Virus record (IMG/VR): IMGVR_UViG_3300044634_001013
Span: 5,702-69,701 of that record
Source of the DNA: a virus
DNA: 64,000 bases
Reading direction: 5' to 3' (one strand)
The position numbers and the translations under genes were made by a program. This document shows positions 1-46,667 of this stretch, piece by piece. Each line of letters opens with the position of its first letter. The stretch's first letter is position 1. Below the pieces are notes generated by a model. It saw only the letters and a list, made by a program, of their open reading frames with translations, had not been told where the DNA came from and did no database searches.

Positions 1-123
1 ACATTAGATTATGGAAATTATGTAGAATACGGAAATTATATTGTTTCTTTAGATGGTGGAACTGCAACAACAGACTATACCACAACACCTAATGATGATA
101 TAATTGATGGAGGGGTAGGTTAA
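1..123 (+). CDS. 3' end of a virion protein gene (partial), ending ...SLDGG...DIIDGGVG
   Basis: Frame 1 is open from base 1 to TAA at 121-123; C-terminal DGG motifs; GGAGGGG SD-like sequence ahead of the next ATG at 129. Confidence 0.7.
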   Translation, partial: TLDYGNYVEYGNYIVSLDGGTATTDYTTTPNDDIIDGGVG

Positions 124-128
124 ATAAA

Positions 129-3509: not shown

Positions 3510-3519
3510 GGAGGGTTAA

Positions 3520-5130
3520 GTGGCAGATAAAAACTTTAAAGTAAAATCTGGTTTACAAGTTCCCTCTCTTACAACAGCGGGTCCTGTAACAACAGATTCA
3601 GCTGGTAACGTTACTTCTTCTGCTACCCTTCCAATTTCACAAGGAGGAACAGGCCAGACAACTGCTGGTAACGCATTAAATGCATTCCTTCCTCTTCAGA
3701 CTAGCCAAGACAATAAGTTTTTACAAACTAATGGCGTAACTACACAATGGACAACTCCTCAACAGCATACAGCAACAGACGGTGTGGTTGGGGCTAAAAT
3801 ATATAGTGGAACAGTTACTCCGTCTTCGCCAGTAATTGGAGATCTCTGGATTGATCAAACAACTGGAAATGGAATTCAATTAGTCAGGTGGCGTAAAACT
3901 GTTGCATCTGCAACAACAACCGTAACTGGACTAGATGATAATAACTTAACTTTATCTTATACCGCTGGAAATGAGCAGGTCTATATTAACGGTGTATTAA
4001 TTACAAGAGGCCAAGATTATACTGCTACAAATGGCACATCTGTTGTTTTAACACAGGCGGCGGAAATAGGAGATACATTAGAAATCTTTGGTAATCCCCT
4101 ATTCTCAGTAACAGATGCATATACACAATCACAGTCTAATTCATTATATGTTTCTAAGTCAGGACTGGATGCAGCTGGAAAAAATTATTTAATTAATGGA
4201 GGAATGGACGTATGGCAAAGAGGCACCTCTTTTGCAGTTACAGGATTAGGATATGCAGCTTATACAGTTGATAGGTGGACATGTTATGCAGGTGCCGCTG
4301 GAACAATCACACAAGATACTTCTTTATATGCACCAGGAACAAGATACGGACTTAGATTTACATCTACAGTATCATCAAGTGCACAGAATTGGTATCAAAT
4401 GGTTGAAACTTCAAATGCAATTGCCCTAGCAGGCCAAACTGTTTGTTTATCTCTTTATGCTGCAGGAACCACGGGAACTACAGGACACTATATGAATCTT
4501 CAGTATTCTAATAATGTCGACGCTAGTTTATTTGATGCTGGTTGGACAAATTGCAGCGGCACAACGGTATCCTATCCAGCAATGACTGGAACAATGCAAA
4601 GACATATCGCTACATTTGTAGTTCCAAATACCGCAAAAAGTTTACGTGTACAGTGGACAACTGGTTTATTAACTAATGCACAATTTCAAACTATTGGTGG
4701 ATTTCAATTAGAATTAGGATCAGTTGCAACACCGTTTTCTCGTGCAGGTGGAGATATTCAGGGAGAACTTGCAAAATGCCAAAGATACTTTTATACTTTG
4801 CCCTATAATTACAATGCTGAAAGAGCAAATCCCTATACTGATTTTTTAATTATGAATACTGCAGACCAAACTGGATGGGCTAGAGGCGTGGTTCAGTTTC
4901 CAGTTACAATGAGAACATCTCCTACGTTACAAGCGCCAACAGCGGCAAATTATTGGATATTAGGATCGGCTGGTGTATTATCTGTTACATCAATAGCAAT
5001 TGATAATATGACAAACGCATCAATGGCTGTTGTAAATGCTTATAGGACTGGTATGTCAACTGGAACAACTTATTTTTTAAGGTTTGCAGGAAACGTAACA
5101 GATTATTTAAGATTTTCGGCGGAGTTATAA
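3520..5130 (+). CDS. Fibre cassette 1 slot A: DK.FKVK-type adaptor fibre with CBM-like domain and C-terminal AEL domain
   Basis: GTG start after GGAGG; MADKNFKVK; GDLWID motif; INGVL...DYTA domain; KN..ING..WQRG...QLELGS.AT...ELAKCQRY...FSAEL. Confidence 0.8.
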   Translation: MADKNFKVKSGLQVPSLTTAGPVTTDSAGNVTSSATLPISQGGTGQTTAGNALNAFLPLQTSQDNKFLQTNGVTTQWTTPQQHTATDGVVGAKIYSGTVTPSSPVIGDLWIDQTTGNGIQLVRWRKTVASATTTVTGLDDNNLTLSYTAGNEQVYINGVLITRGQDYTATNGTSVVLTQAAEIGDTLEIFGNPLFSVTDAYTQSQSNSLYVSKSGLDAAGKNYLINGGMDVWQRGTSFAVTGLGYAAYTVDRWTCYAGAAGTITQDTSLYAPGTRYGLRFTSTVSSSAQNWYQMVETSNAIALAGQTVCLSLYAAGTTGTTGHYMNLQYSNNVDASLFDAGWTNCSGTTVSYPAMTGTMQRHIATFVVPNTAKSLRVQWTTGLLTNAQFQTIGGFQLELGSVATPFSRAGGDIQGELAKCQRYFYTLPYNYNAERANPYTDFLIMNTADQTGWARGVVQFPVTMRTSPTLQAPTAANYWILGSAGVLSVTSIAIDNMTNASMAVVNAYRTGMSTGTTYFLRFAGNVTDYLRFSAEL

Positions 5131-5139
5131 GGGAGAACC

Positions 5140-6171
5140 ATGACAAGAGCTAGAGATAATGCATTTAACCCGTTTAATAATCAAGTTGCTGGCAAGAATG
5201 CAGTAATTAATGGTGGAATGGATATTTGGCAACGTGGAACGACTTTTGCAGGCAATGGAGCATTTGCAAGTTCATTTACAGCTGATAGGTGGCAAGTTTA
5301 TAGAGGTGGTGCTTCTGGAGCAAGTACTGCTACTAGAGGTGCTTCAGATCTTCCAGGTTTCAAATATTTTATTCGTGTTCAACGACCTGCTGGAGATACA
5401 ACAACAACCTACCTAGGCTTATGGCAATCATTGGAAAGCGCAAACTCGTATGTCTACGCTGGCAAGACAGTAACTCTTTCCTTTTATGCACGTGCTGGTT
5501 CTGGAATGACTAATTCTTTTGGGCTAGGTGTTGCTTTATACAGTGGAACTGGAATAGACGAGCCGTGGTACTCGCACACTGGCTCAACGACTGTTGGATC
5601 TAGCAACTTTACTTTAACAACAACTGGTGGAATAGTAAATGGCTGGCAACGTTTTAGTGTTACTGGAAATGTTCCTTCTAACTCCAATGAACTTGGCATT
5701 ACTTTTGGGTATAATCCGACTGCTAGTACAGCATCTTCTACAGACTACTATGATATTACTGGTGTTCAATTAGAATTAGGCTCAACACCAACTGTATTTT
5801 CTCGTGCAGGTGGTACAATTGGAGGAGAGCTTGCGCTTTGCCAAAGATATTATTATAGAGTTATAGGAACAAACTACACTGCTATAGGATCTGGATTTTG
5901 TTTTAATGCTACAAATTTTAGAACAGTTATTAACTTTCCAACATTTATGAGGTCTGCTCCAGGAGTAGCATACTCAGGATCCCTAGTTGCAAATATTAAT
6001 GGTGGTAATGTTATACCAACAGGAATTAATGGAGTATTTAATTCTACAGGATACGGATGCTCATGCTTATTTGTAGACTGGGCAGTATCTGGACAGGCTG
6101 CTGGATATAATGGAGCTTTTTATACTCAAAACAGTTCATTAAACTATGTTGAATTTTCAGCGGAGTTATAG
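5140..6171 (+). CDS. Fibre cassette 1 slot B: MTRARD-type receptor-binding protein (CBM-like + AEL domain)
   Basis: N-terminus MTRARD; WQRG/DRW/VTLSF/QLELGS/CQRYY/FSAEL motifs. Confidence 0.8.
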   Translation: MTRARDNAFNPFNNQVAGKNAVINGGMDIWQRGTTFAGNGAFASSFTADRWQVYRGGASGASTATRGASDLPGFKYFIRVQRPAGDTTTTYLGLWQSLESANSYVYAGKTVTLSFYARAGSGMTNSFGLGVALYSGTGIDEPWYSHTGSTTVGSSNFTLTTTGGIVNGWQRFSVTGNVPSNSNELGITFGYNPTASTASSTDYYDITGVQLELGSTPTVFSRAGGTIGGELALCQRYYYRVIGTNYTAIGSGFCFNATNFRTVINFPTFMRSAPGVAYSGSLVANINGGNVIPTGINGVFNSTGYGCSCLFVDWAVSGQAAGYNGAFYTQNSSLNYVEFSAEL

Positions 6172-6181
6172 GAGGAAATAA

Positions 6182-7447
6182 ATGGCAGTAAAAAGATGGA
6201 ATGGAACGGCATGGGAAGTCTATGCTGGTGCTGACCTAGCTCCCGTCAAAGTTACCGACGGCAGAGTAGGTAAAACTACATTCATTGGTGCTACTTCTCC
6301 TACAGGACAAGTTGATGGAGATATTTGGATTGATCAAGATACAACTACAAACGCAGTTGTTCCAACAGCATTAACAACAAAAGGCGATATATTTGCAGCT
6401 ACTGGCAATGCTGCATATACAAGATTTGCGGCGGGTAATAATGGAGAATCATTATATGCAGATTCATCAACTAGTACAGGATTAAGATGGCAAGGTGATT
6501 TTAATACTGGAAAGAATAAGATTCTAAATGGAGATTTTGGAATTTGGCAAAGAGGGACAAGTTTTTCAAATGTGGCAGGTTATACAGCAGATAGATGGTA
6601 TATAACTTATTCTACACCACCTACAACTCACAGTATTACAAGAGAAACATTTACTCCTGGATCAGCACCAGTTGCTGGATACGAAGGTCAATACTTTTTA
6701 AGAAGAACTACAACAACTCTAGGAAGCAATAACGATGCTTATTTTGGAACAGCTATAGAAGATGTAAGAACTTTAGCAGGACAAACAGTAACACTTTCTT
6801 TCTGGGCCAAAGCAAGTTCATCAGTATCACTTTCACCAGCATTTAATCAAATGTTTGGAACTGGAGGTTCTACCAACGTTGCTACCGTTTTGCCAGTATT
6901 TAGCGTAACAACATCCTGGCAAAGATATTCTGGTACTGTTACAATACCTTCAGTTTCTGGCAAAACAATCGGAACGGGTAGTTATTTAAATCCATATCTT
7001 GGGTATACTCCAGTATCTGGATTGTCTTTAGATTTATGGGGATTTCAATTAGAAGCAGGAAGTGTTGCTACCCCATTCACAACAAATACTGCAAACCCTC
7101 AACAGGAACTTGCCGCATGTCAGAGATATTTTCAAATAATGAGTGGTCCAGGATCTGGAGTAATTGGTTCAAAAAATAATGGAACTGTTACATATTTTAT
7201 TGTGCCTCTTAAAGTAAACATGAGAGCCGCTCCAAGTATGACGAGTTCAGCAGTCGGCGAACTAGCTTTGTCAGCATTAAATGGGTCTACTACGTACCCA
7301 GCTACTAGTTTTTCAACTAATAGAAGCTCACCATGGTCGGCTTCTTTTGGATTAACACAGGCAACATCAGATGGTTCAGCTGGAAGCGCTGGAATCTTAC
7401 TAATTGATTCAGGTAGCGGCTGGGTAGCATTTTCGGCAGAGTTATAA
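6182..7447 (+). CDS. Fibre cassette 1 slot C: receptor-binding protein (CBM-like + AEL domain)
   Basis: MAVKRWNGTAW N-terminus, GDIWIDQD motif, TKGD module, NGDF..WQRG/IEDVR/CQRYF/FSAEL. Confidence 0.8.
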   Translation: MAVKRWNGTAWEVYAGADLAPVKVTDGRVGKTTFIGATSPTGQVDGDIWIDQDTTTNAVVPTALTTKGDIFAATGNAAYTRFAAGNNGESLYADSSTSTGLRWQGDFNTGKNKILNGDFGIWQRGTSFSNVAGYTADRWYITYSTPPTTHSITRETFTPGSAPVAGYEGQYFLRRTTTTLGSNNDAYFGTAIEDVRTLAGQTVTLSFWAKASSSVSLSPAFNQMFGTGGSTNVATVLPVFSVTTSWQRYSGTVTIPSVSGKTIGTGSYLNPYLGYTPVSGLSLDLWGFQLEAGSVATPFTTNTANPQQELAACQRYFQIMSGPGSGVIGSKNNGTVTYFIVPLKVNMRAAPSMTSSAVGELALSALNGSTTYPATSFSTNRSSPWSASFGLTQATSDGSAGSAGILLIDSGSGWVAFSAEL

Positions 7448-7458
7448 GGAGAATATAA

Positions 7459-8808
7459 ATGGCAATTAAAAGATGGAACGGAAGTACAAGTCAGTGGGAA
7501 TTAGTAGGTACCCCAGGGACCGCCACTCCTGCCGCAATTGGTGCTGCTACGCTAGCATCTACTGGCAACACTTTCCTTGGTGTACAAACGATTACTTCTG
7601 CATCTGAATGGCCTTTAATTTCTAGATTTACAAACCCAACATCAACACATAGAAATCACATATTATTACAAAGATCTAATAATAATGCTGCAGTCACATC
7701 AGGGTTTGGCTTGGGCGGAATTGCCATGTCAGGACATGACGGAACAAATTATGGATTAGGATGGAACGGTGGAGCAGAAATAACAGCATACGCTTCACAA
7801 ACATGGACTCCCTCTGCAAGAGGAACATCGTTAGCATTTTCAACTACTCCAGATAATAGTACGACTATATTAGAAAGAATGCGTATTCAGCAAGGTGGAG
7901 ATGTAATATTAACAAACCAGCCGTTTGATGGATTAAGATACTTTGACATATATAACACAAGTTCTGGAAACTCAGCTGGAACAATTATTAGATTAATTAC
8001 AAATAACGCAGCCAACAGTGCAGTAACATCAGTAGATATGGTTAAATACAGAACAGGCGGATTTGTTATAAATAATAGTGATGGATTTACATCATTTAAT
8101 ACTGCAGGCGGAGAAAGAATGCGTATTTTAAGCAGTGGTGCAGTTGTTGTTGGGCACACAGCTTTATTAAATAATGAGGCATTTGGAGTTAGAACAAATG
8201 TTAATATTCAAAATATTTGGTCAGATTCTACTGATCCAAACTATTCCACCGTATCATTTGGAAATAGAATTACACGAGCAAATACATCAGCATACACATT
8301 TTTACAAAATTGGAGCGGCGCAGGTTCTGATACTGAGCATTATTTACGTGGAGATGGACAAGCTTATGCAGACGGATCCTGGAATGGTGGAGGCGCTGAC
8401 TACGCTGAATATTTTGAGTGGGTAGACGGAAATCCAAATAATGAAGACAGAAGAGGTTATTCAGTTTCACTAATAAATGATAAAATTAAGATTGCTGAAG
8501 AAGGAGACGCTGTATTTGGAGTTGTGTCTGGAAACCCTTCAGTAGTTGGAGATGATGCTCCAATGAAGTGGGCGGGGAAGTACCTAAAGGATGACTTTGG
8601 CTCATATATCCGTGATGAAGATGGATATAGAGTATTAAATCCTGAATATGATGAAGAAGCAGAATATGTTAGTCGTGAAAGCAGACCAGAGTGGTCTACA
8701 ATTGGCCTAATGGGTAAACTTCGTTTACGTAAGGGACAAATTGTTTCACCAAGTTGGATTAAGATGAAAGACATTTCGGCAGAAGTCGAAGAATGGCTAG
8801 TTAAATAA
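7459..8808 (+). CDS. Fibre cassette 1 slot D: fibre with C-terminal peptidase G2-type intramolecular chaperone domain
   Basis: ERMRI fibre repeats; C-terminal GADYAEYFEWVDGNPNNEDRRG...GVVS...YLKDDFG...LNPEYD...RPEW..IGLMGKL. Confidence 0.8.
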   Translation: MAIKRWNGSTSQWELVGTPGTATPAAIGAATLASTGNTFLGVQTITSASEWPLISRFTNPTSTHRNHILLQRSNNNAAVTSGFGLGGIAMSGHDGTNYGLGWNGGAEITAYASQTWTPSARGTSLAFSTTPDNSTTILERMRIQQGGDVILTNQPFDGLRYFDIYNTSSGNSAGTIIRLITNNAANSAVTSVDMVKYRTGGFVINNSDGFTSFNTAGGERMRILSSGAVVVGHTALLNNEAFGVRTNVNIQNIWSDSTDPNYSTVSFGNRITRANTSAYTFLQNWSGAGSDTEHYLRGDGQAYADGSWNGGGADYAEYFEWVDGNPNNEDRRGYSVSLINDKIKIAEEGDAVFGVVSGNPSVVGDDAPMKWAGKYLKDDFGSYIRDEDGYRVLNPEYDEEAEYVSRESRPEWSTIGLMGKLRLRKGQIVSPSWIKMKDISAEVEEWLVK

Positions 8809-8818
8809 GGAGAATAAA

Positions 8819-9034
8819 ATGACAGAAGAAACAACATTCGTAATGCCAGAGTTTGTAGATAACTCAGATTATAAGATTAATACTACAGATTTTGGATCAA
8901 CAATTGTAAGAACAGATGAAGATGGTAAAGTATGGTGGATTCCTACTGATCCCGCTAATTCTGATTATGCAAGATATCTTCGTTGGGTTGAAGCGGGTAA
9001 TACTGCAGAAGCCTATGTAGCACCAACAGAGTAA
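8819..9034 (+). CDS. Small fibre-assembly chaperone-like protein (cassette 1 slot E)
   Basis: AGGAG SD; WIPTDPANSDYARYLRWVEAG motif typical of small proteins after fibre genes. Confidence 0.7.
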   Translation: MTEETTFVMPEFVDNSDYKINTTDFGSTIVRTDEDGKVWWIPTDPANSDYARYLRWVEAGNTAEAYVAPTE

Positions 9035-9049
9035 TTAGCATACCTTAAA

Positions 9050-9058
9050 TGGTAAAAT
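9050..9058 (+). promoter_or_regulatory. Extended -10 promoter (TGgTAAAAT) at the start of cassette 2
   Basis: TG-n-TAAAAT in the 33-bp intergenic gap, same style as other promoters in the window. Confidence 0.6.
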
Positions 9059-9067
9059 AGGAGTATC

Positions 9068-10966
9068 ATGGCAGATAAGAATTTTAAGGTAAAAAAGAAT
9101 ATCCAGGTTACAGACTTGGCCGTTGCTGGCCCAGTTACTGTAGACTCATCTGGTGTTCTTGCCTCATCTTCTGCTCTGCCAGTAAATTTGGGCGGAACAG
9201 GGCAAACAAGTGCATCAGCTGCATTTGATGCCCTTCTTCCAACTCAAACAAATAATGCTAATAAGCTTCTAGGAACAGATGGTACATCTGCATCTTGGGT
9301 GTCTCCAGGAATTGCATATCAGACTTCCGCCCCAGATAATCCAGTTACTGGACAATTGTGGGTGGACTCTGATGAGACTGGTGATTCACTAGATCCATAT
9401 ATTATCCGTAGAAAAACAATTACAGCAACTGCTGGACAAACCGTATTTACTACAGATGTAGTATTTACAGACGGATATGAGCAAATTTATTATAATGGTG
9501 TATTACTTGTAAGAACAACTGACTATACAACAAGCGGCGGAACCAACACAGTTACCTTGCTTCAAGGGGCATCAGCAGGAGATACAGTTGAAATTATTTC
9601 ATCTACTCCGATTAATTTAGTAAATAATGCTACATTAAATGCAAATACATTTATTGGAGCTCAAACGATTGAAAACAATCTTTCCTTTAGAACTCCAAAT
9701 AATGGAATTATAACTGGAGGAACAAGTGTTCAAAATGGATTAAATGGAGATTTTTTGCTTATTCAAAGATCTTCTGCAGGTGTAGATGCTGGAATACATT
9801 TTAGAGGTGGTAGTGGTGGAGCAATTGATTGGTCTATATATAATAAAGGAACTACCAACAATTTAGTTTTTAGAAAAGATGATCAGGGAGAACCTTTAGT
9901 GATAACAGATGGGGGTTTAGTTGGAATAGGATATTCCGCTCCAAACTCTCCACTAGAAGTAAGATCTACAAGTAGGGCCTTTGATTCTTTTGGAACAATA
10001 TTGGCGGCATCAAATGACTTTGGAATAAATAATGGCGGATCAATATCTTTGGGCGGAGTATTTACATCTGATAATAATCAAACAAATACAACAGCTTATG
10101 CTCAAGTATCTGGAAGAAAGCTAAACAGTACATCTGGAGATTATGCTGGATACATGGCATTTGCAACTAGAATTCATACAGGAGCTTTAACAGAAAGAAT
10201 GCGTATTACGCATGATGGCGGAGTATTAATTGGAAAAACCTCAAACTTATATGCAACATTAGATATAAATGGATCATTCCATGCATCTTCAAACTTTAAT
10301 GGAAATGTTCCAGGATATGGAGATGGCCTAACAATAGCTCAAAATGTTATTAACGGTGCCGCAGAAATTACTTACTCTCATGGAAATCCGTTCTTTGCCG
10401 CAAATGGTGGACATAGATTTATTCAAAAAACTGGCGCATCAACAGCAAGAACTCTTATGTATATGCGTGGAGATGGATTTGTTGGAATTGGAAAAGATAA
10501 TCCAAGCAATAAGCTAGATGTAGATGGAAATGTTACGGCTAATGGTTTTTATGGCCCTTTGCTTGGTGGAGTAAATGTAACAACAGCAGCAGCTAATACA
10601 GTTTTTGCTGCTAATACAGATACAAAAATTGCAAATCTTGCACCACTTGGAGACGGCCTTTTCGCATTAACAGTAACCTGGGGTTATGGAGATAATAATG
10701 CTGGCGGACAATTGTATTGGGCCACATCATTTGGCGGAATAGTAGGACTTATTTCAAATGGTGCTGGAGGATACTTTAATGGATCACCAGCAAATCAACT
10801 TACAATGTCAGCAACACAACACCATAGAAATGCATCAACCCTACCAACATTCTGGCTAAAGAGCGATACAACAAATGGTTCTTACGGAAGTTTGTCTTTA
10901 TATATTAGATTTCCAGAAGTTACAAAAATTGCTGATGTCTCAGTTTTTGGAAAGAGGGTTGCATAA
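9068..10966 (+). CDS. Fibre cassette 2 slot A: DK.FKVK-type adaptor fibre with beta-rich shaft
   Basis: MADKNFKVKK; GQLWVDSD; YNGVLL...DYTT domain; VGIG...P...L.V shaft repeats; distinct C-terminal domain. Confidence 0.8.
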   Translation: MADKNFKVKKNIQVTDLAVAGPVTVDSSGVLASSSALPVNLGGTGQTSASAAFDALLPTQTNNANKLLGTDGTSASWVSPGIAYQTSAPDNPVTGQLWVDSDETGDSLDPYIIRRKTITATAGQTVFTTDVVFTDGYEQIYYNGVLLVRTTDYTTSGGTNTVTLLQGASAGDTVEIISSTPINLVNNATLNANTFIGAQTIENNLSFRTPNNGIITGGTSVQNGLNGDFLLIQRSSAGVDAGIHFRGGSGGAIDWSIYNKGTTNNLVFRKDDQGEPLVITDGGLVGIGYSAPNSPLEVRSTSRAFDSFGTILAASNDFGINNGGSISLGGVFTSDNNQTNTTAYAQVSGRKLNSTSGDYAGYMAFATRIHTGALTERMRITHDGGVLIGKTSNLYATLDINGSFHASSNFNGNVPGYGDGLTIAQNVINGAAEITYSHGNPFFAANGGHRFIQKTGASTARTLMYMRGDGFVGIGKDNPSNKLDVDGNVTANGFYGPLLGGVNVTTAAANTVFAANTDTKIANLAPLGDGLFALTVTWGYGDNNAGGQLYWATSFGGIVGLISNGAGGYFNGSPANQLTMSATQHHRNASTLPTFWLKSDTTNGSYGSLSLYIRFPEVTKIADVSVFGKRVA

Positions 10967-11985
10967 TGAGTAGAGCTAGAGATTTAGGATCATTAATTAA
11001 TTCACCTGTTGCTGGAAAAAATGTAATAATTAACGGCAATTTTGATTTTTTTCAACGAGGATCTCTTTCAACAACAAATGCTGGATACGGCTTAGATAGA
11101 TGGTATCAATCATCAAGTGGATCAGGTACAAATGTCTCTGTAACTCAACAAACTACAGGAGTTCCAAATGGATCTCGTCATTGCATGAGAGTTACAATGA
11201 CAGGTGTTAATGGATATGGAAATCAGTATCAAGTAATTGAAACTTTAAATACAGTACCTTTACAAGGTAAAATGGTAACGCTTTCTGCAAAATTACGCAG
11301 AAGCTCAGGCTACGCTGGTAATATAACTATGACTTTAGAAAAATCTGCAACAGTTGATGCTACCATGGGTGGAACATGGACAACCTTGGCTGCTCAAGGA
11401 GTTTTAAACTCTTCTTTACCAACAGGTACTACATCCTCTGACTGGTACAGTTTGCAATTTTCTGTATTTGTTCCTAACGATGGAACTGCAAATTCTTTAA
11501 AAATTGGTTTTTCTCAATCTCAAACAGAATCAAACTGCTATTGGGAAGTTTCACAAGTTCAAGTAGAGGCAGGATCTTCTGCTACTACATTTTCTCGTGC
11601 AGGCGGAGATATTCAAGGAGAGCTTGCTAAATGTCAAAGATATTACTATAGAGATACTTTAGAAAAACACCTAACTCATGTTAGAGATACTAACTTATGG
11701 TTTATAACAAAAACATTTCCAGTAAGAATGAGATCTGTAGTATCTTTTTCTCATAACTTAACTACAAAAGTTACACCAGGAACATTCCCAGGAACTGCAG
11801 GACAAATAGGAATATATTCAAATGGTTGGGTTGCTCAAAACGCAACATCTTTAAGCTGTTCCTCAGATGGAGGAAGTAATGATCATGGATCATTTTATAT
11901 AGTAGGATTTAACGGAACGCTAGGTCAAGTTGGATCTATTCAAAGCAACGGTATATCTTATTTTGAGTGGAATGCGGAGTTATAG
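10966..11985 (+). CDS. Fibre cassette 2 slot B: MSRARD-type receptor-binding protein (CBM-like + AEL domain)
   Basis: TAATG coupling; MSRARDL; FSRAGGDIQGELAKCQRYY; ends WNAEL. Confidence 0.8.
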   Translation: MSRARDLGSLINSPVAGKNVIINGNFDFFQRGSLSTTNAGYGLDRWYQSSSGSGTNVSVTQQTTGVPNGSRHCMRVTMTGVNGYGNQYQVIETLNTVPLQGKMVTLSAKLRRSSGYAGNITMTLEKSATVDATMGGTWTTLAAQGVLNSSLPTGTTSSDWYSLQFSVFVPNDGTANSLKIGFSQSQTESNCYWEVSQVQVEAGSSATTFSRAGGDIQGELAKCQRYYYRDTLEKHLTHVRDTNLWFITKTFPVRMRSVVSFSHNLTTKVTPGTFPGTAGQIGIYSNGWVAQNATSLSCSSDGGSNDHGSFYIVGFNGTLGQVGSIQSNGISYFEWNAEL

Positions 11986-11993
11986 GAGATAAT

Positions 11994-12812
11994 ATGGCAA
12001 AGAAACTTAAGATATATAATGGCTCTTCATGGGAAGATGTTACGTTTGCTATTACCCCACCGTCCACAAATGTAACTAATTCATTTAGTACTAATCAGGT
12101 AATTGATGTTTCTACTTCAGTAGCCGCCCTTAGAGTAACACAGCGGGGTGCAGGAGAAGCACTAAGAGTAGAAGATGAAACAAACCCAGACTCCACACCA
12201 TTTGTAATCACTTCTGCAGGAAATGTTGGAATTGGTGTTTCAAGTCCTAGTGGAGTATTAGATATTAACGGAAGACAAAATATTCGTGGCAATGCAGTAT
12301 TAAGTTTTCAAAATACTGGAAATACTGCAGGTTTCGATGTAGGATTGCTTGGCGGAACTTCAGACCCAATTGGATATATTTTTAATAGAGCTAACTCAGA
12401 CATTGCGTTTGGAACAAATAATGCTGAAACAATGAGATTAACCGCTTCAGGTAATTTAGGTATAAACGTAGCCAATGCAACTTATAGAATTCAAACATTT
12501 AGCGCATTGTCTGCTTCTGTAGGATCACAATCATTAATCTTTCAAACACAAGTTAATAATGGAAACAATGATTATTTTAGACTTTATCAAGAAAGAACAA
12601 TTGCAGTAACATCCTGGGGAGGCTCAGATTGGATTTTAAGAAGACAAGTTGATGGAACACCAATGGGTGGATTTAGATGGGCAGCTGCAGATTGGAACGT
12701 TAGGGCAATATATGGAGTTCCAACTGACCCATCAGTTAGAACATCTCACATATCAACCTCTGCTCCAACAGGTGGAATAGACGGAGATATTTGGTTAGTT
12801 TATACGGCGTGA
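11994..12812 (+). CDS. Fibre cassette 2 slot C: short fibre ending in a GDIW docking motif
   Basis: Start moved to ATG 11994 after AGGAG; MAKKLKIYNGSSW; GNVGIG shaft repeats; C-terminus SAPTGGIDGDIWLVYTA. Confidence 0.75.
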   Translation: MAKKLKIYNGSSWEDVTFAITPPSTNVTNSFSTNQVIDVSTSVAALRVTQRGAGEALRVEDETNPDSTPFVITSAGNVGIGVSSPSGVLDINGRQNIRGNAVLSFQNTGNTAGFDVGLLGGTSDPIGYIFNRANSDIAFGTNNAETMRLTASGNLGINVANATYRIQTFSALSASVGSQSLIFQTQVNNGNNDYFRLYQERTIAVTSWGGSDWILRRQVDGTPMGGFRWAAADWNVRAIYGVPTDPSVRTSHISTSAPTGGIDGDIWLVYTA

Positions 12813-12816
12813 TATT

Positions 12817-13704
12817 ATGACTAAACACGTTAAAGTAAATGGAGTATGGAAAGACGTAACTCAACAATATGTTAAAGTTGGCGGTTCATGGAAAACTGTA
12901 TCTTCTGGCTGGATTAAAGTAGCAGGAGTTTGGAAACAGTTTTATTCTTCTATACCAACAGTTTCTGTTACATATTTAGTTGTTGCAGGTGCAGGTGCAG
13001 GTGGATCTTCTGCAGGTGGTGGCGGCGGCGCTGGAGGAATGGTTGAGGGAACATATAGTTTGACATCTACTGGAACATATCCAGTAGTTGTAGGTGCTGG
13101 GGGTTCAGCAACCCCAACGAATGGTCCTGGAAACTCTGGATTTAATTCATCAGTGTTTGGAATTAATGGTATCGGTGGCGGAGGAGCATCTGCTTGGGGT
13201 CAAGGAAATGCACAAAGCGGTGGATCTGGTGGTGGCGGCGGCGCTGGAGGAAATTATAATGGCACAGGAGTTCAGTTTGGTGGAGCATCAACACAAACTT
13301 CTCCATCTGGTGGAACTGGTTATGGAAATGCTGGATCAAACGGAAACTCAAGTGGAAGCGGTAGCGCAGGTGGCGGCGGCGGAGCTGGAAGTGCTGGAGG
13401 ACTTCCAGCAGCGGGATCTGGAAGAGCAAATTCTATTTCTGGTTCATCAGTAACATATTCATCTGGAGGAACTGGAGGTTTTACTGGAATTGTTTCTGGA
13501 ACATATCCTAGTGGTGCTGCAAATACGGGAAATGGTGGAACTGGGTCAACAGACAATAAAACAGCAGGAGCTGGTGGTTCTGGTATAGTCATAATTAGAT
13601 ATACAACTGGATCAATGACAGCAACTGGCGGAACAGTAACAACAAGCGGAGGAAATACAATTCATACATTTACGGCTAACGGAAACTTTGTGAGGACAGC
13701 ATAA
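12817..13704 (+). CDS. Fibre cassette 2 slot D: glycine-rich adhesin-like protein
   Basis: Three N-terminal KVxGxWK repeats, then YLVVAGAG...GGGGG...GSGIVIIRY...GG...HTFT glycine-rich domain. Confidence 0.75.
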   Translation: MTKHVKVNGVWKDVTQQYVKVGGSWKTVSSGWIKVAGVWKQFYSSIPTVSVTYLVVAGAGAGGSSAGGGGGAGGMVEGTYSLTSTGTYPVVVGAGGSATPTNGPGNSGFNSSVFGINGIGGGGASAWGQGNAQSGGSGGGGGAGGNYNGTGVQFGGASTQTSPSGGTGYGNAGSNGNSSGSGSAGGGGGAGSAGGLPAAGSGRANSISGSSVTYSSGGTGGFTGIVSGTYPSGAANTGNGGTGSTDNKTAGAGGSGIVIIRYTTGSMTATGGTVTTSGGNTIHTFTANGNFVRTA

Positions 13705-14048
13705 TGGCACACTGGGCAGAAATTGATGAAAATAATATTGTTACTCGTGTAACTGTTGGAGACAATAATGATCCAGATGAAGGGTATCAGTGGCTTGTAG
13801 ATAATTTGGGCGGAACTTGGATTAAGACTTCCTACAATGCAGCAACAAATGGTTTTAGAAAAAACTACGCAGGTATTGGTTATACATGGGATGAGGATAG
13901 AGATGCCTTTATTCCGCCTCAGAGATTTCAGTCATGGAAGTTAGACGAAGAAACATGTATCTGGGTACCCTCAAAACCTTATCCAGAAGACGGAAAAATA
14001 TATGTATGGGATGAAGATGCTCAAAAATGGCTGGCAGATCTAGAATAA
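13704..14048 (+). CDS. Small acidic partner/chaperone of the glycine-rich protein (cassette 2 slot E)
   Basis: MAHWAEIDENNIV...TSYN...RKNYAGIGYTWD..RDAFIPP, a family commonly adjacent to Gly-rich phage proteins; TAATG coupling. Confidence 0.7.
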   Translation: MAHWAEIDENNIVTRVTVGDNNDPDEGYQWLVDNLGGTWIKTSYNAATNGFRKNYAGIGYTWDEDRDAFIPPQRFQSWKLDEETCIWVPSKPYPEDGKIYVWDEDAQKWLADLE

Positions 14049-14053
14049 AGGAA

Positions 14054-14062
14054 TGCTATAAT
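14054..14062 (+). promoter_or_regulatory. Extended -10 promoter (TGcTATAAT) at the start of cassette 3
   Basis: Perfect TGnTATAAT in an intergenic gap; GAATGCTATAATTA is identical at 26131-26144. Confidence 0.7.
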
Positions 14063-14096
14063 TAAGTCATACCAATTAGGGGATATGTGAACCAGA

Positions 14097-16061
14097 TTGT
14101 CAGATAAAGATTTTAAAGTAAAGAATAAGCTTGTAGTCAATGGACTTACTGGCGGTGCTGGCCCGCTTATTGCCAACTCAAATAAAGAAATAGATTCAGT
14201 AGCATTCCTAACTACATTGCAGGGCGGAACAGGAACAACAACATCTCCTTCTGCTGGTCAAGTATTATATTCAGCAGGCGGAACATCATATAACCCAACA
14301 GCCATAAATACATTAGATGTAAAGGGTGCCACATACTCTGCAGATGCCCCATCTAGCCCAGTTATTGGGCAAATCTGGGTGGAGTCAGATACAACCTCAG
14401 ATTCATTTGATCCAAATATTATTCGCAGAAAGTCATTTACTGCAACTGCAGCACAAACTACATTTACAACAGATGTTCCATTTATTCAGGGATATGAGCA
14501 GGTGTTCTTTAATGGAATGCTACTTGTTCGTAATAATGACTATACAACTACAAATGATACTACTGTTGTTTTAACAACAGGGGCGGCAGTAAACGATGTA
14601 GTAGAAGTAGTAACAATAACTAATTTAAATTCTATTAACACCGTCACAACAACTGGTGCAAATACAATAACATCAACTAGTGCATCTACAATACCATTAA
14701 CAATACAAGGCGCAGCATCTCAAACAGCTGACTTGCTTAGACTTACAAACAGCTCTGGACAAATTTTAGCAAACCATAACGGATCAACTTTAAATTTAAA
14801 AACTAATACATTCCCAGCTCTTTCATTAACAAGATATGGAATAGATCAGGCAAGCGCAGGTATAGATTTTATAAAATCAAATAGTGCTACTTTAGATACT
14901 GATGCTGCCGTAGCTTTAGATAGCAAACTGTTTGATATGAGGTCTGTTGGTTATGATGGATCAGCATACGGAACTGTTGCAACATCAATATCTGGTTGGG
15001 TAGACGGTGCAGTAAGTAGTGGATCTATTCCAGGAAGATTAGTTTTTGCTACGTCTGGCGTAGAAAGACTTCGGATTAATTCTAGTGGAAATATAAGCTC
15101 ATTATTCAATCAATCATTTGCTAACAGCTCATATGCTGGAAAGAATGTAATAATTAATGGAGCGATGGATATCTGGCAAAGAGGTACTTCTTTTCCAAGC
15201 GGAGTCGGTCTTGGATCTGCAACAGTTTATTCTGCAGATAGATGGCACTGGTACAGAGGCGGAAATGATTCAGGAGCAACTTTAACTAGACAGTCTGCTG
15301 GACTTGCTGGATTTCAATATTGTATTAGAATGCAAAGAAACTCTGGAAATACTTCTACTCAAGCATTAGGATTAAGATATACTGCAGAAACTGCAGACTC
15401 TGTAAGATTTGCAGGAAAACAAGTTACGTTATCATTCTGGGCGAGAAAAGGTGCAAACTATAGCGGATCAAGCAATACATTTAGAGCAACAGTTGCAACT
15501 GGAACTGGAACAGATCAAGTAGTTCATTCATTTACTGGATTTGCTTATATCGTAGATCAAAATGTAACTCTTACAGATAACTGGCAAAGATTTACTCTTA
15601 CTGGAACTGCCGCATCTAATGTTACTCAAATTGGTTTAGAAATGTTCCATACACCAACAGGTACTGCAGGGGCAAATGATTTTATGGAAATTACTGGAAT
15701 TCAATTAGAAGAAGGTTCAATAGCAACACCTTTTTCTCGTGCAACAGGAACTACTCAAGGTGAACTTGCTGCATGCCAAAGATATTTCCAAATACTTGGA
15801 GACAATATCTATGAATTAATTTATGGCGGCTACATGACTTCAGGAACTGTTGCCTACATATCTTTTCCATTCCCAGTAACTATGAGAACTACTCCAGTCG
15901 GAACATTAGTTGGAGGTTGGGCAGTATTTAATACAGGACAACCAGTAATTCAAGCAACATTTCCACATACAATTTCTTTAAGAGCAACATCAACTGCTAC
16001 AGGACAATTTTATTTTCATAGTAATACAACATATTATTTAACAATGAATGCGGAGCTGTAA
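14097..16061 (+). CDS. Fibre cassette 3 slot A: DK.FKVK-type adaptor fibre with CBM-like + AEL domain
   Basis: TTG start; MSDKDFKVK; GQIWVESD; FNGMLL...DYTT; ELAACQRYF; ends MNAEL. Confidence 0.8.
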   Translation: MSDKDFKVKNKLVVNGLTGGAGPLIANSNKEIDSVAFLTTLQGGTGTTTSPSAGQVLYSAGGTSYNPTAINTLDVKGATYSADAPSSPVIGQIWVESDTTSDSFDPNIIRRKSFTATAAQTTFTTDVPFIQGYEQVFFNGMLLVRNNDYTTTNDTTVVLTTGAAVNDVVEVVTITNLNSINTVTTTGANTITSTSASTIPLTIQGAASQTADLLRLTNSSGQILANHNGSTLNLKTNTFPALSLTRYGIDQASAGIDFIKSNSATLDTDAAVALDSKLFDMRSVGYDGSAYGTVATSISGWVDGAVSSGSIPGRLVFATSGVERLRINSSGNISSLFNQSFANSSYAGKNVIINGAMDIWQRGTSFPSGVGLGSATVYSADRWHWYRGGNDSGATLTRQSAGLAGFQYCIRMQRNSGNTSTQALGLRYTAETADSVRFAGKQVTLSFWARKGANYSGSSNTFRATVATGTGTDQVVHSFTGFAYIVDQNVTLTDNWQRFTLTGTAASNVTQIGLEMFHTPTGTAGANDFMEITGIQLEEGSIATPFSRATGTTQGELAACQRYFQILGDNIYELIYGGYMTSGTVAYISFPFPVTMRTTPVGTLVGGWAVFNTGQPVIQATFPHTISLRATSTATGQFYFHSNTTYYLTMNAEL

Positions 16062-16062
16062 A

Positions 16063-16224
16063 ATGACAATAATATATGAACATATAAATGAAGATCTAGA
16101 AAATATGATTATAGAGCATATTAGCAGAACAAATGAAGACGGTTCGGTATCTTGGATTCCAATAGAGCCAAAGAATTCTGAATATCAAGAGTATTTAAGG
16201 TGGGTGGAGGAAAATAATGTCTAG
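16063..16224 (+). CDS. Unlisted 53-aa chaperone-like ORF, paralogue of 8819-9034
   Basis: Hand translation MTIIYEHINEDLENMIIEHISRTNEDGSVSWIPIEPKNSEYQEYLRWVEENNV; shares RTxEDG...WIP..P.NS.Y..YLRWVE. Confidence 0.85.
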   Translation: MTIIYEHINEDLENMIIEHISRTNEDGSVSWIPIEPKNSEYQEYLRWVEENNV

Positions 16225-17248
16225 AGTTAGAGATCTAGCAAGTATATTAACAGCATCATCTAGTATGGCTACTGATACTGAAGTTTCTGCTGTATCCGCT
16301 CAAATTCCTACAAATGTCGCGGGTAAGAATTTTGTAATTAATGGCGGAATGGATATAGCCCAGAGAGGAACATCTTTAACTGGAGTAAATGGTTACTCGT
16401 TAGATAGATGGCTAGTTAACGGATTTGGAACAAATTCAAATATATCAGTAGGTCAATTTTTAATATCTACATTAATTCCAGGTCTTAGATATTATATGAG
16501 AGTTGCTCCTACTACATCAAATAATCAAAATTTTTGGATTAGCCAATCTTTAGAAACTCATGAAGTTATAAGGCTTGCTGGTAAACAAGTAACATTATCT
16601 TTCTATCACAGAATGCCGTTTGCATTTACTGGAACATGGAGTGCGGCTGTATCGTTTTCTACTGGCACAGATGCTAATCTGCATTATCCAGCTTCATCCA
16701 CAGGAATTTTTGCTGAAAATTTAAGTGGCACAGCGGCATGGCAAAGGTATACAAAAACATTTACAGTTCCTGCAAATGCAACTTCCCTTGCTATACAGTT
16801 TCAAACAACAAACAATGTTTTAAACACATCTATGTTTGATTTAACAGGAGTTCAATTAGAAATTGGATCTGTTGCTACAGATTTTTCTAGAGCAGGTGGA
16901 GATATTCAAGGAGAACTTTCTAAATGCCAAAGATATTACTGGCGATATGGTGGAGAAAATGTCTATCAATTTTTTGGTAACGGACTTGCCCCATCAACTA
17001 GCGGAGTGTATTATTTTATAAATAATCCAGTTCCAATGAGAGTTGGACCAACATCAATTGAGTTTGCTTCATTGGCAGCCTACGACGGACCAAATGCAAT
17101 TGTAGTCAGCAATCTTATTTTAGATAGACCAACAAGAAACGGAGCATTCTTGTTTGCAACTGTATCTGGTACAACTCAATATAGACCTTACATGATAACA
17201 ACAAATAATAATGCTAACGGATACTTGGCATTTAGTGCGGAATTATAG
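16217..17248 (+). CDS. Fibre cassette 3 slot B: MSRVRD-type receptor-binding protein (CBM-like + AEL domain)
   Basis: GGAGG SD; MSRVRDL; FSRAGGDIQGELSKCQRYY; FSAEL. Confidence 0.8.
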   Translation: MSRVRDLASILTASSSMATDTEVSAVSAQIPTNVAGKNFVINGGMDIAQRGTSLTGVNGYSLDRWLVNGFGTNSNISVGQFLISTLIPGLRYYMRVAPTTSNNQNFWISQSLETHEVIRLAGKQVTLSFYHRMPFAFTGTWSAAVSFSTGTDANLHYPASSTGIFAENLSGTAAWQRYTKTFTVPANATSLAIQFQTTNNVLNTSMFDLTGVQLEIGSVATDFSRAGGDIQGELSKCQRYYWRYGGENVYQFFGNGLAPSTSGVYYFINNPVPMRVGPTSIEFASLAAYDGPNAIVVSNLILDRPTRNGAFLFATVSGTTQYRPYMITTNNNANGYLAFSAEL

Positions 17249-17258
17249 GAGATAAATA

Positions 17259-18440
17259 ATGGGTAAAAAAATAAGAGTATGGGATGGAACAGCGTGGCAA
17301 GATGTAGCACCATCATTGCCTTATACCGCCATTCATTCTGCACAAGCATCAATGCCATTGACTGGCGTAGATGGGCAAGTTTGGCTAGACACAGATGGAA
17401 CTTTGGCGGGACAAGATTTTGTTCCATTAGCTGGTGGAACAATGACAGGAAATTTAAACACTCCTTCTATAAATAGTGGACCAATTGTTGGACGTAATAA
17501 TTTATTAAATGGTGATTTTTCAATTTGGCAGCGTGGCACATCATTTACTGGCACAAGTAATTCAAATGTATTTACCGCCGACAGATGGATAGTTCAAAGT
17601 CAAGGAGTAAATAGCTCTGTATCAAAACAAGTCTTGTCTGGTGGAGAAATTGCTGGATATGATTCAGAGTCTTATATTAGAATTTCAAATGCTTCAGCTG
17701 GATCTGCAAATACATTATTTATACAAAGAATAGAAGATGTTAGAAGTATGGCAGGTCAAAATGTCACTGTTTCATTTTGGGCAAAAGCTTCTACTGCAAC
17801 TACAATATATGTAAGATCTGATCAAGATTTTGGTTCTGGCGGAAGTTCTAGAGTTGCTAATGGAGGTTCTGGAGTTTCAGTTTCTACTACATGGCAAAGA
17901 AGGTCTGCGACATTTGCATTATCTTCAATTTCTGGAAAAACGATTGGGCCTTCATCCTATTTAGACTTTTTTATATACTGGGCAAATACATCCGCACAGA
18001 CTGTAGATTTATGGGGAATTCAAATAGAATTAGGCAGTCAAGCAACTCCATTTCATACTGCTACTCCAAATCAACAAACAGAATTAGCAGCATGTCAGAG
18101 ATATTATTATAGAACATCTGGAACAACATACACTCCATTAACTGTAGGAGGATATACTCAAAGCACTACTGATTTAGCTTGGTGGGTCCCGCTTCCAGTT
18201 TCAATGCGTGTAGCGCCAACGTCTCTAGATTTTTCAGGATCTGGAGCTATAGCATTTAGAAGTGCTAACAACGGATCTGGATACACTATGGGGAATTTGA
18301 CCTTTGCATCTTCGCTATCAACACCGACATTAGCTCGTGGTGGAGGATCAATCAGTAGCGGAACATGGGTAGCCTTTCACTCAGGCTACCTTGAAGGAAA
18401 TAACGGACCATGCTTTCTAGGATTTTCAGCGGAATTATAA
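17259..18440 (+). CDS. Fibre cassette 3 slot C: receptor-binding protein (CBM-like + AEL domain)
   Basis: MGKKIRVWDGTAW; GQVWLDTD; IEDVR; ELAACQRYY; FSAEL. Confidence 0.8.
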   Translation: MGKKIRVWDGTAWQDVAPSLPYTAIHSAQASMPLTGVDGQVWLDTDGTLAGQDFVPLAGGTMTGNLNTPSINSGPIVGRNNLLNGDFSIWQRGTSFTGTSNSNVFTADRWIVQSQGVNSSVSKQVLSGGEIAGYDSESYIRISNASAGSANTLFIQRIEDVRSMAGQNVTVSFWAKASTATTIYVRSDQDFGSGGSSRVANGGSGVSVSTTWQRRSATFALSSISGKTIGPSSYLDFFIYWANTSAQTVDLWGIQIELGSQATPFHTATPNQQTELAACQRYYYRTSGTTYTPLTVGGYTQSTTDLAWWVPLPVSMRVAPTSLDFSGSGAIAFRSANNGSGYTMGNLTFASSLSTPTLARGGGSISSGTWVAFHSGYLEGNNGPCFLGFSAEL

Positions 18441-18450
18441 GGAGATATAA

Positions 18451-19665
18451 ATGCCAACATTAGGAAATACACCAAGACCAGCTTATGTATATGATACAGA
18501 GACAGATACTTGGGTTCCCGTCGGAGTAGGAGCACATACTCATAGCGATATACCAAATACATTGGTAGATGCTAAGGGAGATCTTATTACCGCCACCGCC
18601 GATAACGTTCCTGCCCGTTTAGCAAAAGGAGCGGACGGAACAGTATTAGTTGCAGACTCCACAACTTCAACAGGATTAGCTTGGCAGCCATATGCTCCAC
18701 AAGTTGTTGCAGGAAAAAATAAAATAATCAATGGAGATTTTTCAGTTTGGCAACGTGGATCTTCTTTTACAAGCCCATCAGATAATGTATTTACAGCAGA
18801 TCGCTGGAGACAAAATGGTGACGGAACAAAGGGCACAAGAATTTGGAGTAGACAAGCATTTACTCCAGGAGAAATTCCTGGATATGAATCTCAATACTAT
18901 ATGAGATTTCAGCAATCTGTGGCTGGTTCTGGAGCAACATATCAAAATATATTAATTCAGCCAATTGAAGATGTTAGAACGTTGGCTGGAAAAACTGTAA
19001 CTTTCTCATTTTGGGCAAAAGCAGACACAACTGGAAGAACTATTGCCCCTATAGCATATAGATTTTATGGAACAGGAAGCCCTTCTTCCGCAGAAGGAAT
19101 AAATCCAGCACCAATAACATTAACTACATCATGGCAAAGATATTCCTCAACATTTTTTATTCCGTCTTTAGCTGGCAAAACAATATCTTCATCTGATCAT
19201 ACTTTGCAAATGATTTTAGCTCCGACATTTAATATTGCTCAAACAATTGATATTTGGGGGATTCAATTAGAAGAAGGATCAGTAGCAACCCCATTTAGCA
19301 CAGCAACAGGAACTATTCAGGGAGAGCTCGCTGCATGCCAAAGATATTATTATAAAATAGGTCCATCCGATGGATCTTCTTCATCATTTTTATATTCACC
19401 ATTGGGAATGGCTAATGCTACTACTCAAGTAATTGTTACATTTCCTTTCCCTCAAATAATGCGTGTTAAGCCAACATCTATTGAGTATACAAATCCAAGA
19501 GTTTCTGATGGGGCAAACGTATCAACTGCAACATCTTTAATTTTGGGAGATGCTTCATCAAGCCTGGGCTCTGTTAATGTTAATGGATCTGGATTTACAG
19601 TATTTAGAAATTATTGGATGATGAATAACAGTAACTCATCCCTTGCGTTTAACGCAGAACTATAA
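18451..19665 (+). CDS. Fibre cassette 3 slot D: receptor-binding protein (CBM-like + AEL domain)
   Basis: PAYVYDTETDTW N-terminal motif; AKGD module; IEDVR; ELAACQRYY; FNAEL. Confidence 0.8.
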   Translation: MPTLGNTPRPAYVYDTETDTWVPVGVGAHTHSDIPNTLVDAKGDLITATADNVPARLAKGADGTVLVADSTTSTGLAWQPYAPQVVAGKNKIINGDFSVWQRGSSFTSPSDNVFTADRWRQNGDGTKGTRIWSRQAFTPGEIPGYESQYYMRFQQSVAGSGATYQNILIQPIEDVRTLAGKTVTFSFWAKADTTGRTIAPIAYRFYGTGSPSSAEGINPAPITLTTSWQRYSSTFFIPSLAGKTISSSDHTLQMILAPTFNIAQTIDIWGIQLEEGSVATPFSTATGTIQGELAACQRYYYKIGPSDGSSSSFLYSPLGMANATTQVIVTFPFPQIMRVKPTSIEYTNPRVSDGANVSTATSLILGDASSSLGSVNVNGSGFTVFRNYWMMNNSNSSLAFNAEL

Positions 19666-46663: not shown

Positions 46664-46667
46664 CATA

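Follow-up and report, generated by a model that had tools for sequence, protein, structure and literature searches.

Complementary halves of a fibre beta-motif are present on separate proteins in three gene sets of a viral contig and may connect them

The window considered in this work (viz. the whole stretch of 64,000 nucleotides that was analysed) corresponds to bases 5702-69701 of the 69.7-kb IMG/VR viral contig IMGVR_UViG_3300044634_001013, whose completeness is estimated at 63%. All large genes of the window are carried by its + strand, as are all of the module features described below, and its GC content is ~38%. Between bases 129 and 21624 lies a fibre module of 14 large proteins and four small open reading frames (ORFs), 18 in total. 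The large proteins are ORF129, three successive sets (cassettes) termed A, B, C and D, and a LamG-like protein E, and the majority of them are labelled as tail fibre by PHROGs. The region probably holds the genes for three paralogous sets of fibre (receptor-binding) proteins of the virion. The subject of this report is a motif that is present in one piece in other fibres, but whose two halves, referred to here as the socket and the plug, are found on different proteins of these sets.

The primary fibre of cassette 1, A1 (3520-5130), consists of a K-type leader (MADKNFKVK), a socket (PSSPVIGDLWID, residues 101-112; 3820-3855), a domain referred to as the NG domain (approximately residues 119-195; 3874-4104), which based on AlphaFold2 (AF2) and Foldseek appears to be a T7 gp17-N/T4 gp10-like beta-sandwich by fold, and a CBM-like distal domain ending in SAEL. 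Its secondary fibres are B1 (5140-6171), in which a short conserved N-terminal peptide (MTRARDNAFNPFNN) is joined to a CBM-like domain; C1 (6182-7447), which carries a plug (6188-6214), a socket (6299-6334), a KGD motif and a CBM-like domain; and D1 (7459-8808), whose N-terminus is of the plug type (7465-7497) and whose C-terminus is a Peptidase_G2 autoproteolytic chaperone domain (PF11962; residues 296-430, 119.1 bits, E 2.5e-34, cut-off 25 bits). The presence of an intramolecular chaperone domain of this type suggests that the D1 trimer may cleave itself after folding. Cassette 2 comprises A2 (9068-10966; socket 9332-9367, NG domain and a different distal domain), B2 (10966-11985; a start of the form MSRARDLGS followed by a CBM-like domain), the shaft protein C2 (11994-12812), with an N-terminal plug (12006-12032) and a socket at its extreme C-terminus (12765-12800; stop codon 12810-12812), and the tip protein D2 (12817-13704), in which three plug repeats (12829-12945) precede a glycine-rich domain (Gly_rich_2, PF21722; residues 46-262, 50 bits, E 4.9e-13, cut-off 24.3 bits). 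Cassette 3 comprises A3 (14097-16061; socket 14349-14384, NG domain, CBM-like domain), B3 (16217-17248; start MSRVRDLAS, CBM-like domain), C3 (17259-18440; plug 17271-17297, socket 17355-17390, CBM-like domain) and D3 (18451-19665; divergent plug RPAYVYDTETDTWVPVG at 18481-18513, KGD motif, CBM-like domain). The C-terminal domain of ~320 amino acids ending in SAEL is common to eight of these proteins (A1, B1, C1, B2, A3, B3, C3 and D3); it is called only CBM-like because its scores against CBM_4_9 (PF02018), viz. 25.2 bits for C1, 25.1 for C3, 24.1 for D3 and 13.9 for B3, fall below the gathering cut-off of 25.9 bits. The PF02018 label is precomputed on some homologues.

In its contiguous form the motif would be a beta-meander of ~37 residues, of which the socket (..P...G[DQ]xWxD) would supply strands b0-b1 and the plug (lKxWNGxxW) strands b2-b3. 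The two halves were sought with regular expressions in the 18 proteins of the fibre module, and also in a six-frame scan of the whole 64 kb. Among the 18 proteins sockets are present only in A1 (residue 101), C1 (40), A2 (89), C2 (258), A3 (85) and C3 (33), and none was found in B1-3, D1-3, ORF129 or E. The plug expression matches only at residues 3-21 of C1, D1, C2, C3 and D3, and the N-terminus of D2 contains three looser plug repeats (VKVNGVW, VKVGGSW and IKVAGVW). From the six-frame scan, the six known sites and one out-of-frame chance match were recovered for the socket, and for the plug the five N-termini alone. An earlier note on this DNA had listed six sockets and plug-like N-termini in C1 to D3, with two sockets (on A and C) and two plugs (on C and D) in each cassette and none of the B or D proteins bearing a socket, and the scan bears out this description, with D2 recognised through its looser repeats.

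The note had also held that the motif is contiguous in many fibres, and this is the case both on the same contig and among solved structures. Three fibre-like ORFs immediately upstream of the window (positions 3519-3959, 3972-5360 and 5363-5824 of the contig, whose bases 1-5900 were surveyed as locus L115) contain it, an example being PSGTYAGEIYYNTVSGALKIFNGTTW, and one of them, of 153 amino acids, holds two copies. Further upstream in L115, a 644-amino-acid ORF (860-2794) looked like a nucleotide-metabolism enzyme. Of the two structures matched, one is the C-terminus of gp49 of Shigella phage B2 (E 5.4e-5) and the other, a weak match, is in TSP3 of phage CBA120. Against a profile of 37 positions, built from 50 unique contiguous motifs in relatives, positions 3-23 are matched by the six sockets (5.5-12.2 bits) and positions 22-37 by the plugs of C1, C2 and C3 (6.8-14.5 bits). 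No protein of the window gave a full 37-position match; each stretch corresponds to one of these two ranges and never to both, and the break between them is the turn of the contiguous motif. Hence the socket and the plug are complementary, non-overlapping halves of one motif, and share their origin with its contiguous form. In a BLAST comparison, residues 5-50 of C1 align to residues 228-268 of C2. Searches of PDB sequences gave nothing useful for C1, A1 or two of the upstream contiguous-motif proteins, and profile searches of the PDB gave no match to the D2 N-terminal plug repeats or the terminal socket.

At the junction between C2 and D2, the socket of C2 lies 3 residues before its stop codon, the protein ending in GDIWLVYTA, and D2 begins with MTKHVKVNGVW 4 nucleotides later, so that the boundary between the two genes is the turn of the contiguous motif. 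Among 30 loci that were found by the N-terminus of D2, plug repeats open a gene in 23, and in 15 of these 23 the upstream ORF ends in ..PSGGxDGDIWxxY.. (loci retrieved with the whole of D2 mostly matched its C-terminus and are uninformative on the junction). The reciprocal test was made on 80 loci chosen solely by the C2-type socket pattern, these being the best 80 of 321 confirmed. In all 80 the socket motif is within 3 residues of the stop; in 77 the next ORF starts at -6 to +30 nucleotides, and in 69 of these 77 it is opened by at least two plug units. The background of the loose plug pattern is 67/600 and 99/692 ORFs, i.e. 11-14% of ORF starts. Loci selected on other grounds contain 1292 ORFs, of which 3 terminate in a socket, and each of these 3 is succeeded by a plug-repeat gene. 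The proteins upstream of this junction vary from shafts of ~220 amino acids to a collagen-like protein of 717, and those downstream from glycine-rich tips to a protein of 510 amino acids. Lastly, a profile of the plug repeats, run against 1.84 billion representatives, matched 5046 clusters at E<=1e-3, and in 149 of the best 150 of these the match begins at residues 1-6, the sole internal match being at residues 30-69. Socket and plug genes are tightly linked, often overlapping by 1 or 4 nucleotides, which fits a matched supply of the two partners.

Since only 4 nucleotides separate the stop from the ATG, and the contiguous motif has its turn at exactly this point, one could suppose that C2-D2 and similar pairs are in reality one polypeptide, produced by programmed frameshifting or stop read-through, or that the split is an assembly error. 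This is highly improbable. A homologue of C2 that is 42% identical (in the relative L012) retains both the GDIWAVYTA-stop ending and the split arrangement. Further, the 69 pairs have junction spacings of -3 to +21 nucleotides and are spread over each of the three relative frames (28, 35 and 6 cases), due to which recoding into one chain is unlikely, and internal matches among the best 150 plug-module proteins are confined to the one noted above. Longer proteins in which the D2 N-terminus is fused were looked for and none turned up, although this is weak evidence. A complex prediction for three copies each of the last 60 residues of C2 and the first 55 of D2, made without controls, scored 0.13 and 0.10, the mark being 0.32, and is used neither way. 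Based on these comparisons, the C2 to D2 joint, in which the terminal socket of C2 would pair with the three plugs of D2, is the best-supported step of the proposed scheme.

A second association concerns the sockets that adjoin the NG domain. Among 59 aligned homologues of residues 1-215 of A1, residues P101, G107 and W110 of the socket are invariant, along with core residues of the NG domain. In the AF2 monomer of the same residues the pLDDT (predicted confidence) is 62-68 in the socket and 92-96 in the NG domain next to it, and therefore the socket is not confidently folded in cis. Foldseek relates the A1 NG domain chiefly to N-terminal anchor or branching regions of phage fibres and spikes, viz. 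CBA120 TSP4, LME-1, HRP29, PhiM1 and T7 gp17 (7boz_a), with E values of 1.5e-3 to 2.5e-2 and probabilities of 0.98-1.00, and to the T4 baseplate (5iv5_AC) with E 0.14 and probability 0.96; there was no match at E<=0.001, and no Pfam match to T7-tail or gp10 sequence families in the module proteins. From the predicted fold, the NG domain looks like known fibre anchor or branching domains. A survey of 80 further loci yielded 57 unique NG-domain proteins, of which 52 were compared after leaving out 5 that start with a plug. Where an orphan socket is present upstream of the NG domain, a plug-starting gene is found within 5 kb downstream in 18 of 19 cases, whereas this is so for only 2 of the 33 NG proteins lacking a socket, 31 having neither (Fisher p 8e-11, shared ancestry ignored). 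The lone socket protein without such a gene nevertheless has a plug gene in its locus listing, and of the two exceptions of the opposite kind, one is due to the plug gene of a neighbour and the other to a socket beyond the distance window. Furthermore, in six proteins that are complete in cis, having GALYWNSVSATMFAWTGSAW and then the first NG strand at the same position, no plug gene is present nearby in any case (6/6). N-termini of the D3 type (RPGYVWD..W.PIG) are found downstream of socket-bearing fibres in many loci. Over 50 non-redundant loci, the numbers of socket-only and N-terminal plug-only profile matches are correlated (Spearman 0.78, shared ancestry again ignored). When the NG proteins were grouped by single linkage at 60%, the 10 resulting clusters mixed forms with and without a socket and gave no information, and an AF2 model of the cis-complete protein of L293 (245 amino acids, 10-row alignment) had a mean pLDDT of 42.6, too poor to be set beside A1.

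The order ORF129-A-B-C-D-A-B-C-D and the motifs are also retained in the close relatives L009-L016, and a single A-B-C-D-E set, with its motifs, is kept in the more distant L088. In L009-L016 the N-terminal parts are 92-100% identical and the distal domains 29-70%. For B1, identity over the first 20 residues is 85-100% in relatives vs 29-41% for the distal part, and for C1 it is 92-100% over residues 1-66 vs 33-70% distally. These 66 residues are present at an identity of at least 86% (median 98%) in 60 of the 120 homologues listed, while the remaining ones have swapped N-terminal modules, e.g. Mtd_N or the contiguous motif. Conserved N-termini combined with variable distal domains are the usual pattern where one end of a protein docks and the other, which binds the receptor, is exchangeable, and the secondary proteins here show what characterises branched receptor-binding proteins, viz. 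a conserved N-terminal element followed by a variable distal domain. Among other architectures, the simple relative L232 has a single orphan socket and a single orphan plug, in L087 two sockets on A are accompanied by two plug-only proteins, and in L088 and L245 the arrangement of a socket on A, a plug and a socket on C and a plug on D is repeated.

Based on these results, we consider it on balance probable that the split halves pair in trans and thereby connect fibre proteins into serial (end-to-end) and branched assemblies. The primary protein A consists of a leader, an orphan socket hairpin, a putative anchor or branching domain and a distal domain, and the secondary proteins are strongly conserved only in short N-terminal elements by which they would dock, viz. 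M[ST]R[AV]RD in B and the plug hairpin in C and D. A socket and a plug on different proteins, presumably as trimers, would rebuild the sheet of the contiguous motif and tie the chains together non-covalently, probably by strand complementation.

Several observations weigh against this reading. The N-termini of D1, D2 and D3 score weakly against the contiguous profile (2.5, -1.7 and -2.2 bits, respectively). Those of D2 and D3 fall in separate, well-populated families of their own. In a MAFFT alignment the sockets of A fell on strand b3 of the cis-complete motif and not on b1, making their placement ambiguous. The socket pattern used in the reciprocal test was derived from terminal examples, inclusive of the ..Y tail, and may favour terminal copies, and 8 of the 77 terminal sockets precede other kinds of starts (M..[IL]Y[VI]D[FY]E.G or MATYKFYYS). 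The co-occurrence counts do not take shared ancestry into account, there being by eye about six architectural classes on each side. Finally, four proteins with both a plug and a socket (in L251, L254, L255 and L256) have no other plug gene nearby.

That the counts ignore shared ancestry also speaks for the view that the half-motifs never touch, but are ordinary trimerisation or shaft elements that are inherited together, with docking occurring by other means, e.g. by peptides on the NG domain. Known branched systems are reported to use such a combination of a branching domain and a docking peptide (PMC13352976), and A may have a domain of this kind by fold. However, co-inheritance does not explain why a socket subtype that is always terminal should lie beside a plug-starting gene across very different upstream proteins, why the plug module should be N-terminal in all but one of the best 150 matches, or why the cis-complete versions should lack separate plug genes. 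We therefore regard this view as improbable.

The four proteins that carry both halves bear on a different question, viz. which plug belongs to which socket. Because C1 and C3 likewise carry both halves, and these four proteins stand alone, pairing of a chain with itself is possible and the wiring A to C to D is not forced. In the serious alternative that follows from this, C1 and C3 would close on themselves within their own homotrimers as a circular permutation of the motif, the plug of D would engage A directly in cassettes 1 and 3, C would be attached by some other surface, and only A2, C2 and D2 would form a chain. The four proteins, in which plug, short linker, socket and NG domain follow one another (MTKPLYFYNGSS..GDIWID) while none of the next ORFs is a further plug-starting gene, speak for it. 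A compact block of plug, linker and socket recurs in C1, C3, the 360-amino-acid protein of L245 and the 436-amino-acid protein of L088, the plugs of C1 and C3 being spaced 19-28 residues from their sockets; the alignment of C1 with C2 by BLAST noted above also counts in its favour, and the counts of sockets and plugs balance equally well. Nevertheless, in every case where gene order reveals the partner, the socket gene is directly followed by the plug gene, as C1 is by D1 and C3 by D3, and the sockets of C (..G.DG[DQ][IV]W) share the subtype of the terminal sockets that precede plug genes. Moreover, if C closed on itself, no conserved element would remain by which it could dock, and yet conservation in this protein is highest over its first 66 residues. 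We thus consider self-closure unlikely, though somewhat less so than the absence of any contact, and, in view of the direct succession of the genes and the subtype of the C sockets, the simplest arrangement of cassettes 1 and 3 under pairing in trans would be one in which C docks on A and D, encoded right after the socket-bearing C, docks on C. Of the chains of complemented strands from A through C to D that the earlier note had proposed, the comparisons support the origin of the two halves from one motif and an association of sockets with plug-starting genes well above chance expectation; the pairing of the strands would be a prediction and the wiring is not fixed, and no evidence was found for the plug-and-socket code specific to each cassette that was part of the same proposal.

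For the B proteins, the suggestion had been that their RARD peptide binds to the NG domain of A. Starts of the B type (M[ST]R.R[DN]-like) are found in 56 of 852 ORFs overall, but directly after an NG protein in 18 of 62 cases and directly before one in 0 of 60; this gene order is the support for the suggestion. It should be added that, by analogy with the second fibre of the Klebsiella phages discussed below, the B peptide might dock on the NG domain of A as that fibre does on its branching domain. A further proposal placed the DK.FKVK leader of A on the C-terminal domain of ORF129, and here too the support is gene order. A gene resembling ORF129 and ending in ..TNV.VK[FL]SKV.L is followed after 10-13 nucleotides by a protein of the MADKNFKVK type in 15 of 35 unique cases (window 3474-3560, and L010, L012, L014, L229-L231, L252, L267, L268, L280, L294, L296, L300 and L302), and this pair may represent a second conserved end-to-start junction. 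ORF129-like ends of the form ..TNV.VK[FL]SKV[KAS]L were seen to precede starts of the form M[AS]DK.FKVK.GL. Another gene pair of this general appearance was noticed in L230-L232, L234, L237, L240, L262, L272, L280, L281, L290, L293 and L303, where a fibre with the ending ..IMGAY or ..LMGVY has, no more than ~20 nucleotides downstream, a protein of ~100 amino acids beginning MA.T.K.LFRGAA.TS..TLYT.P...SGVEI[AS].

Both branched and serial assemblies of fibre proteins are known, the tailspike complex of phage CBA120 and tailspikes of the G7C type being among the closest. TSP2 and TSP4 of phage CBA120 branch through XD domains. The N-terminal region of TSP4 (7rfo_B) is the best Foldseek match of the A1 NG domain (E 1.5e-3, probability 1.00), a likeness at the level of fold only, with a TM score of 0.26 normalised to the 215-residue query, and residues 585-624 of CBA120 TSP3 (PDB 5w6f) are the weak copy of the contiguous motif mentioned earlier (E 0.52). 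In the long tail fibre of T4, separate proteins (gp34-gp35-gp36-gp37) are joined end to end and non-covalently, and a serial non-covalent fibre of this kind is proposed here for A2-C2-D2. In KP32, K11 and KP34, which are podophages of Klebsiella, the first receptor-binding protein is reported to have a branching domain and the second a conserved docking peptide (PMC13352976; PMC6872550). The module described here is similar in having a primary fibre with a putative anchor or branching domain, secondary fibres with a short conserved N-terminus and variable distal domains, and several specificities on one attachment point. It differs in that the proposed connector consists of two halves of a beta-motif contiguous elsewhere, in having three or four proteins per set and three such sets, in being known from genes alone, and in its sequence families. 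The two-protein tailspike gp48/gp49 of Shigella phage B2 has been solved (PDB 9d83/9d84; PMC11654681), and its first protein, gp49, ends in the whole motif (residues 370-407), which is not split as it is here; Foldseek also finds a likeness between the NG domain and one chain, of 69 residues, in 9d84. The N-terminal beta-prism of Mtd of Bordetella phage BPP-1 is believed to attach it to the tail fibre (PMC10743442). The N-terminus of ORF129 is a member of this family (PF18454), and the Mtd_N pattern P..GE.G.E.DT...K.G...W resembles the contiguous motif, but this is a resemblance only: sockets and plugs gave no PF18454 match, nor was there any in the A, B, C or D proteins, and the split halves are therefore not Mtd_N members by this hidden Markov model test.

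Full-text literature searches retrieved no description of a split motif serving as a fibre connector. Such a connector would be a new variant of the branched and serial assemblies already known, the physical pairing of its halves being a prediction from sequence. More tentatively, it is possible, but in our opinion somewhat doubtful, that the halves constitute a general and portable split-sheet connector, used end to end or in branches in thousands of phage lineages, with C1- and C3-like adaptors as extension pieces. Branched and serial receptor-binding assemblies determine the host range of phages, and how their parts recognise each other is known for a few model phages. If the connector is general in this way, the number and order of fibre proteins in a virion could be readable from gene sequence alone. 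A connector recognisable from sequence would also allow fibre architecture to be predicted for uncultured phages, its signs being a plug that stands at a free N-terminus and a socket that either closes a protein or precedes its anchor domain. Tips would likewise be exchangeable by swapping an N-terminus of ~12-45 residues, which would offer a natural splice point for the exchange of tip proteins in laboratory phages.

ORF129 (129-3509), which opens the module, is a long fibre of 1126 amino acids with duplicated internal domains, and its Mtd_N assignment (residues 5-39; 43.9 bits, E 2.2e-11) exceeds the gathering cut-off of 26.3 bits. Within this gene, a 39-nucleotide tandem repeat of 4.6 copies (2707-2886) encodes ..ELNILDGVTS.. 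units. The module is closed by the LamG-like protein E (19846-21624; PF13385, E 1.7e-8), which is kept after the cassettes in the relatives L009, L087 and L088. Downstream of the module are found a portal protein with 57-58% identity to those of Streptomyces phages, e.g. LukeCage, as well as a capsid-like protein, an adaptor, a tape-measure protein of 2170 amino acids, minor tail proteins and a DNA polymerase. These genes mark the source of the DNA as a large tailed phage whose tape-measure protein is long. A megablast search of the region against phage records gave no match, and a near relative was not found among deposited phages. After the minor tail genes (43187-49790), two large ORFs of 1158 and 1040 amino acids are present which had no PHROG match at E<=1e-5. 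Of the small ORFs between cassettes, s1 (8819-9034) and s3 (16048-16224) are 64% identical over 33 residues and had no match in a family search. Another one, s2 (13704-14048), encodes 114 amino acids starting with MAHWAEIDENNIV and lies directly after the glycine-rich D2; small ORFs resembling it come after genes for fibres or glycine-rich proteins in many loci, and s2 may be an assembly helper.

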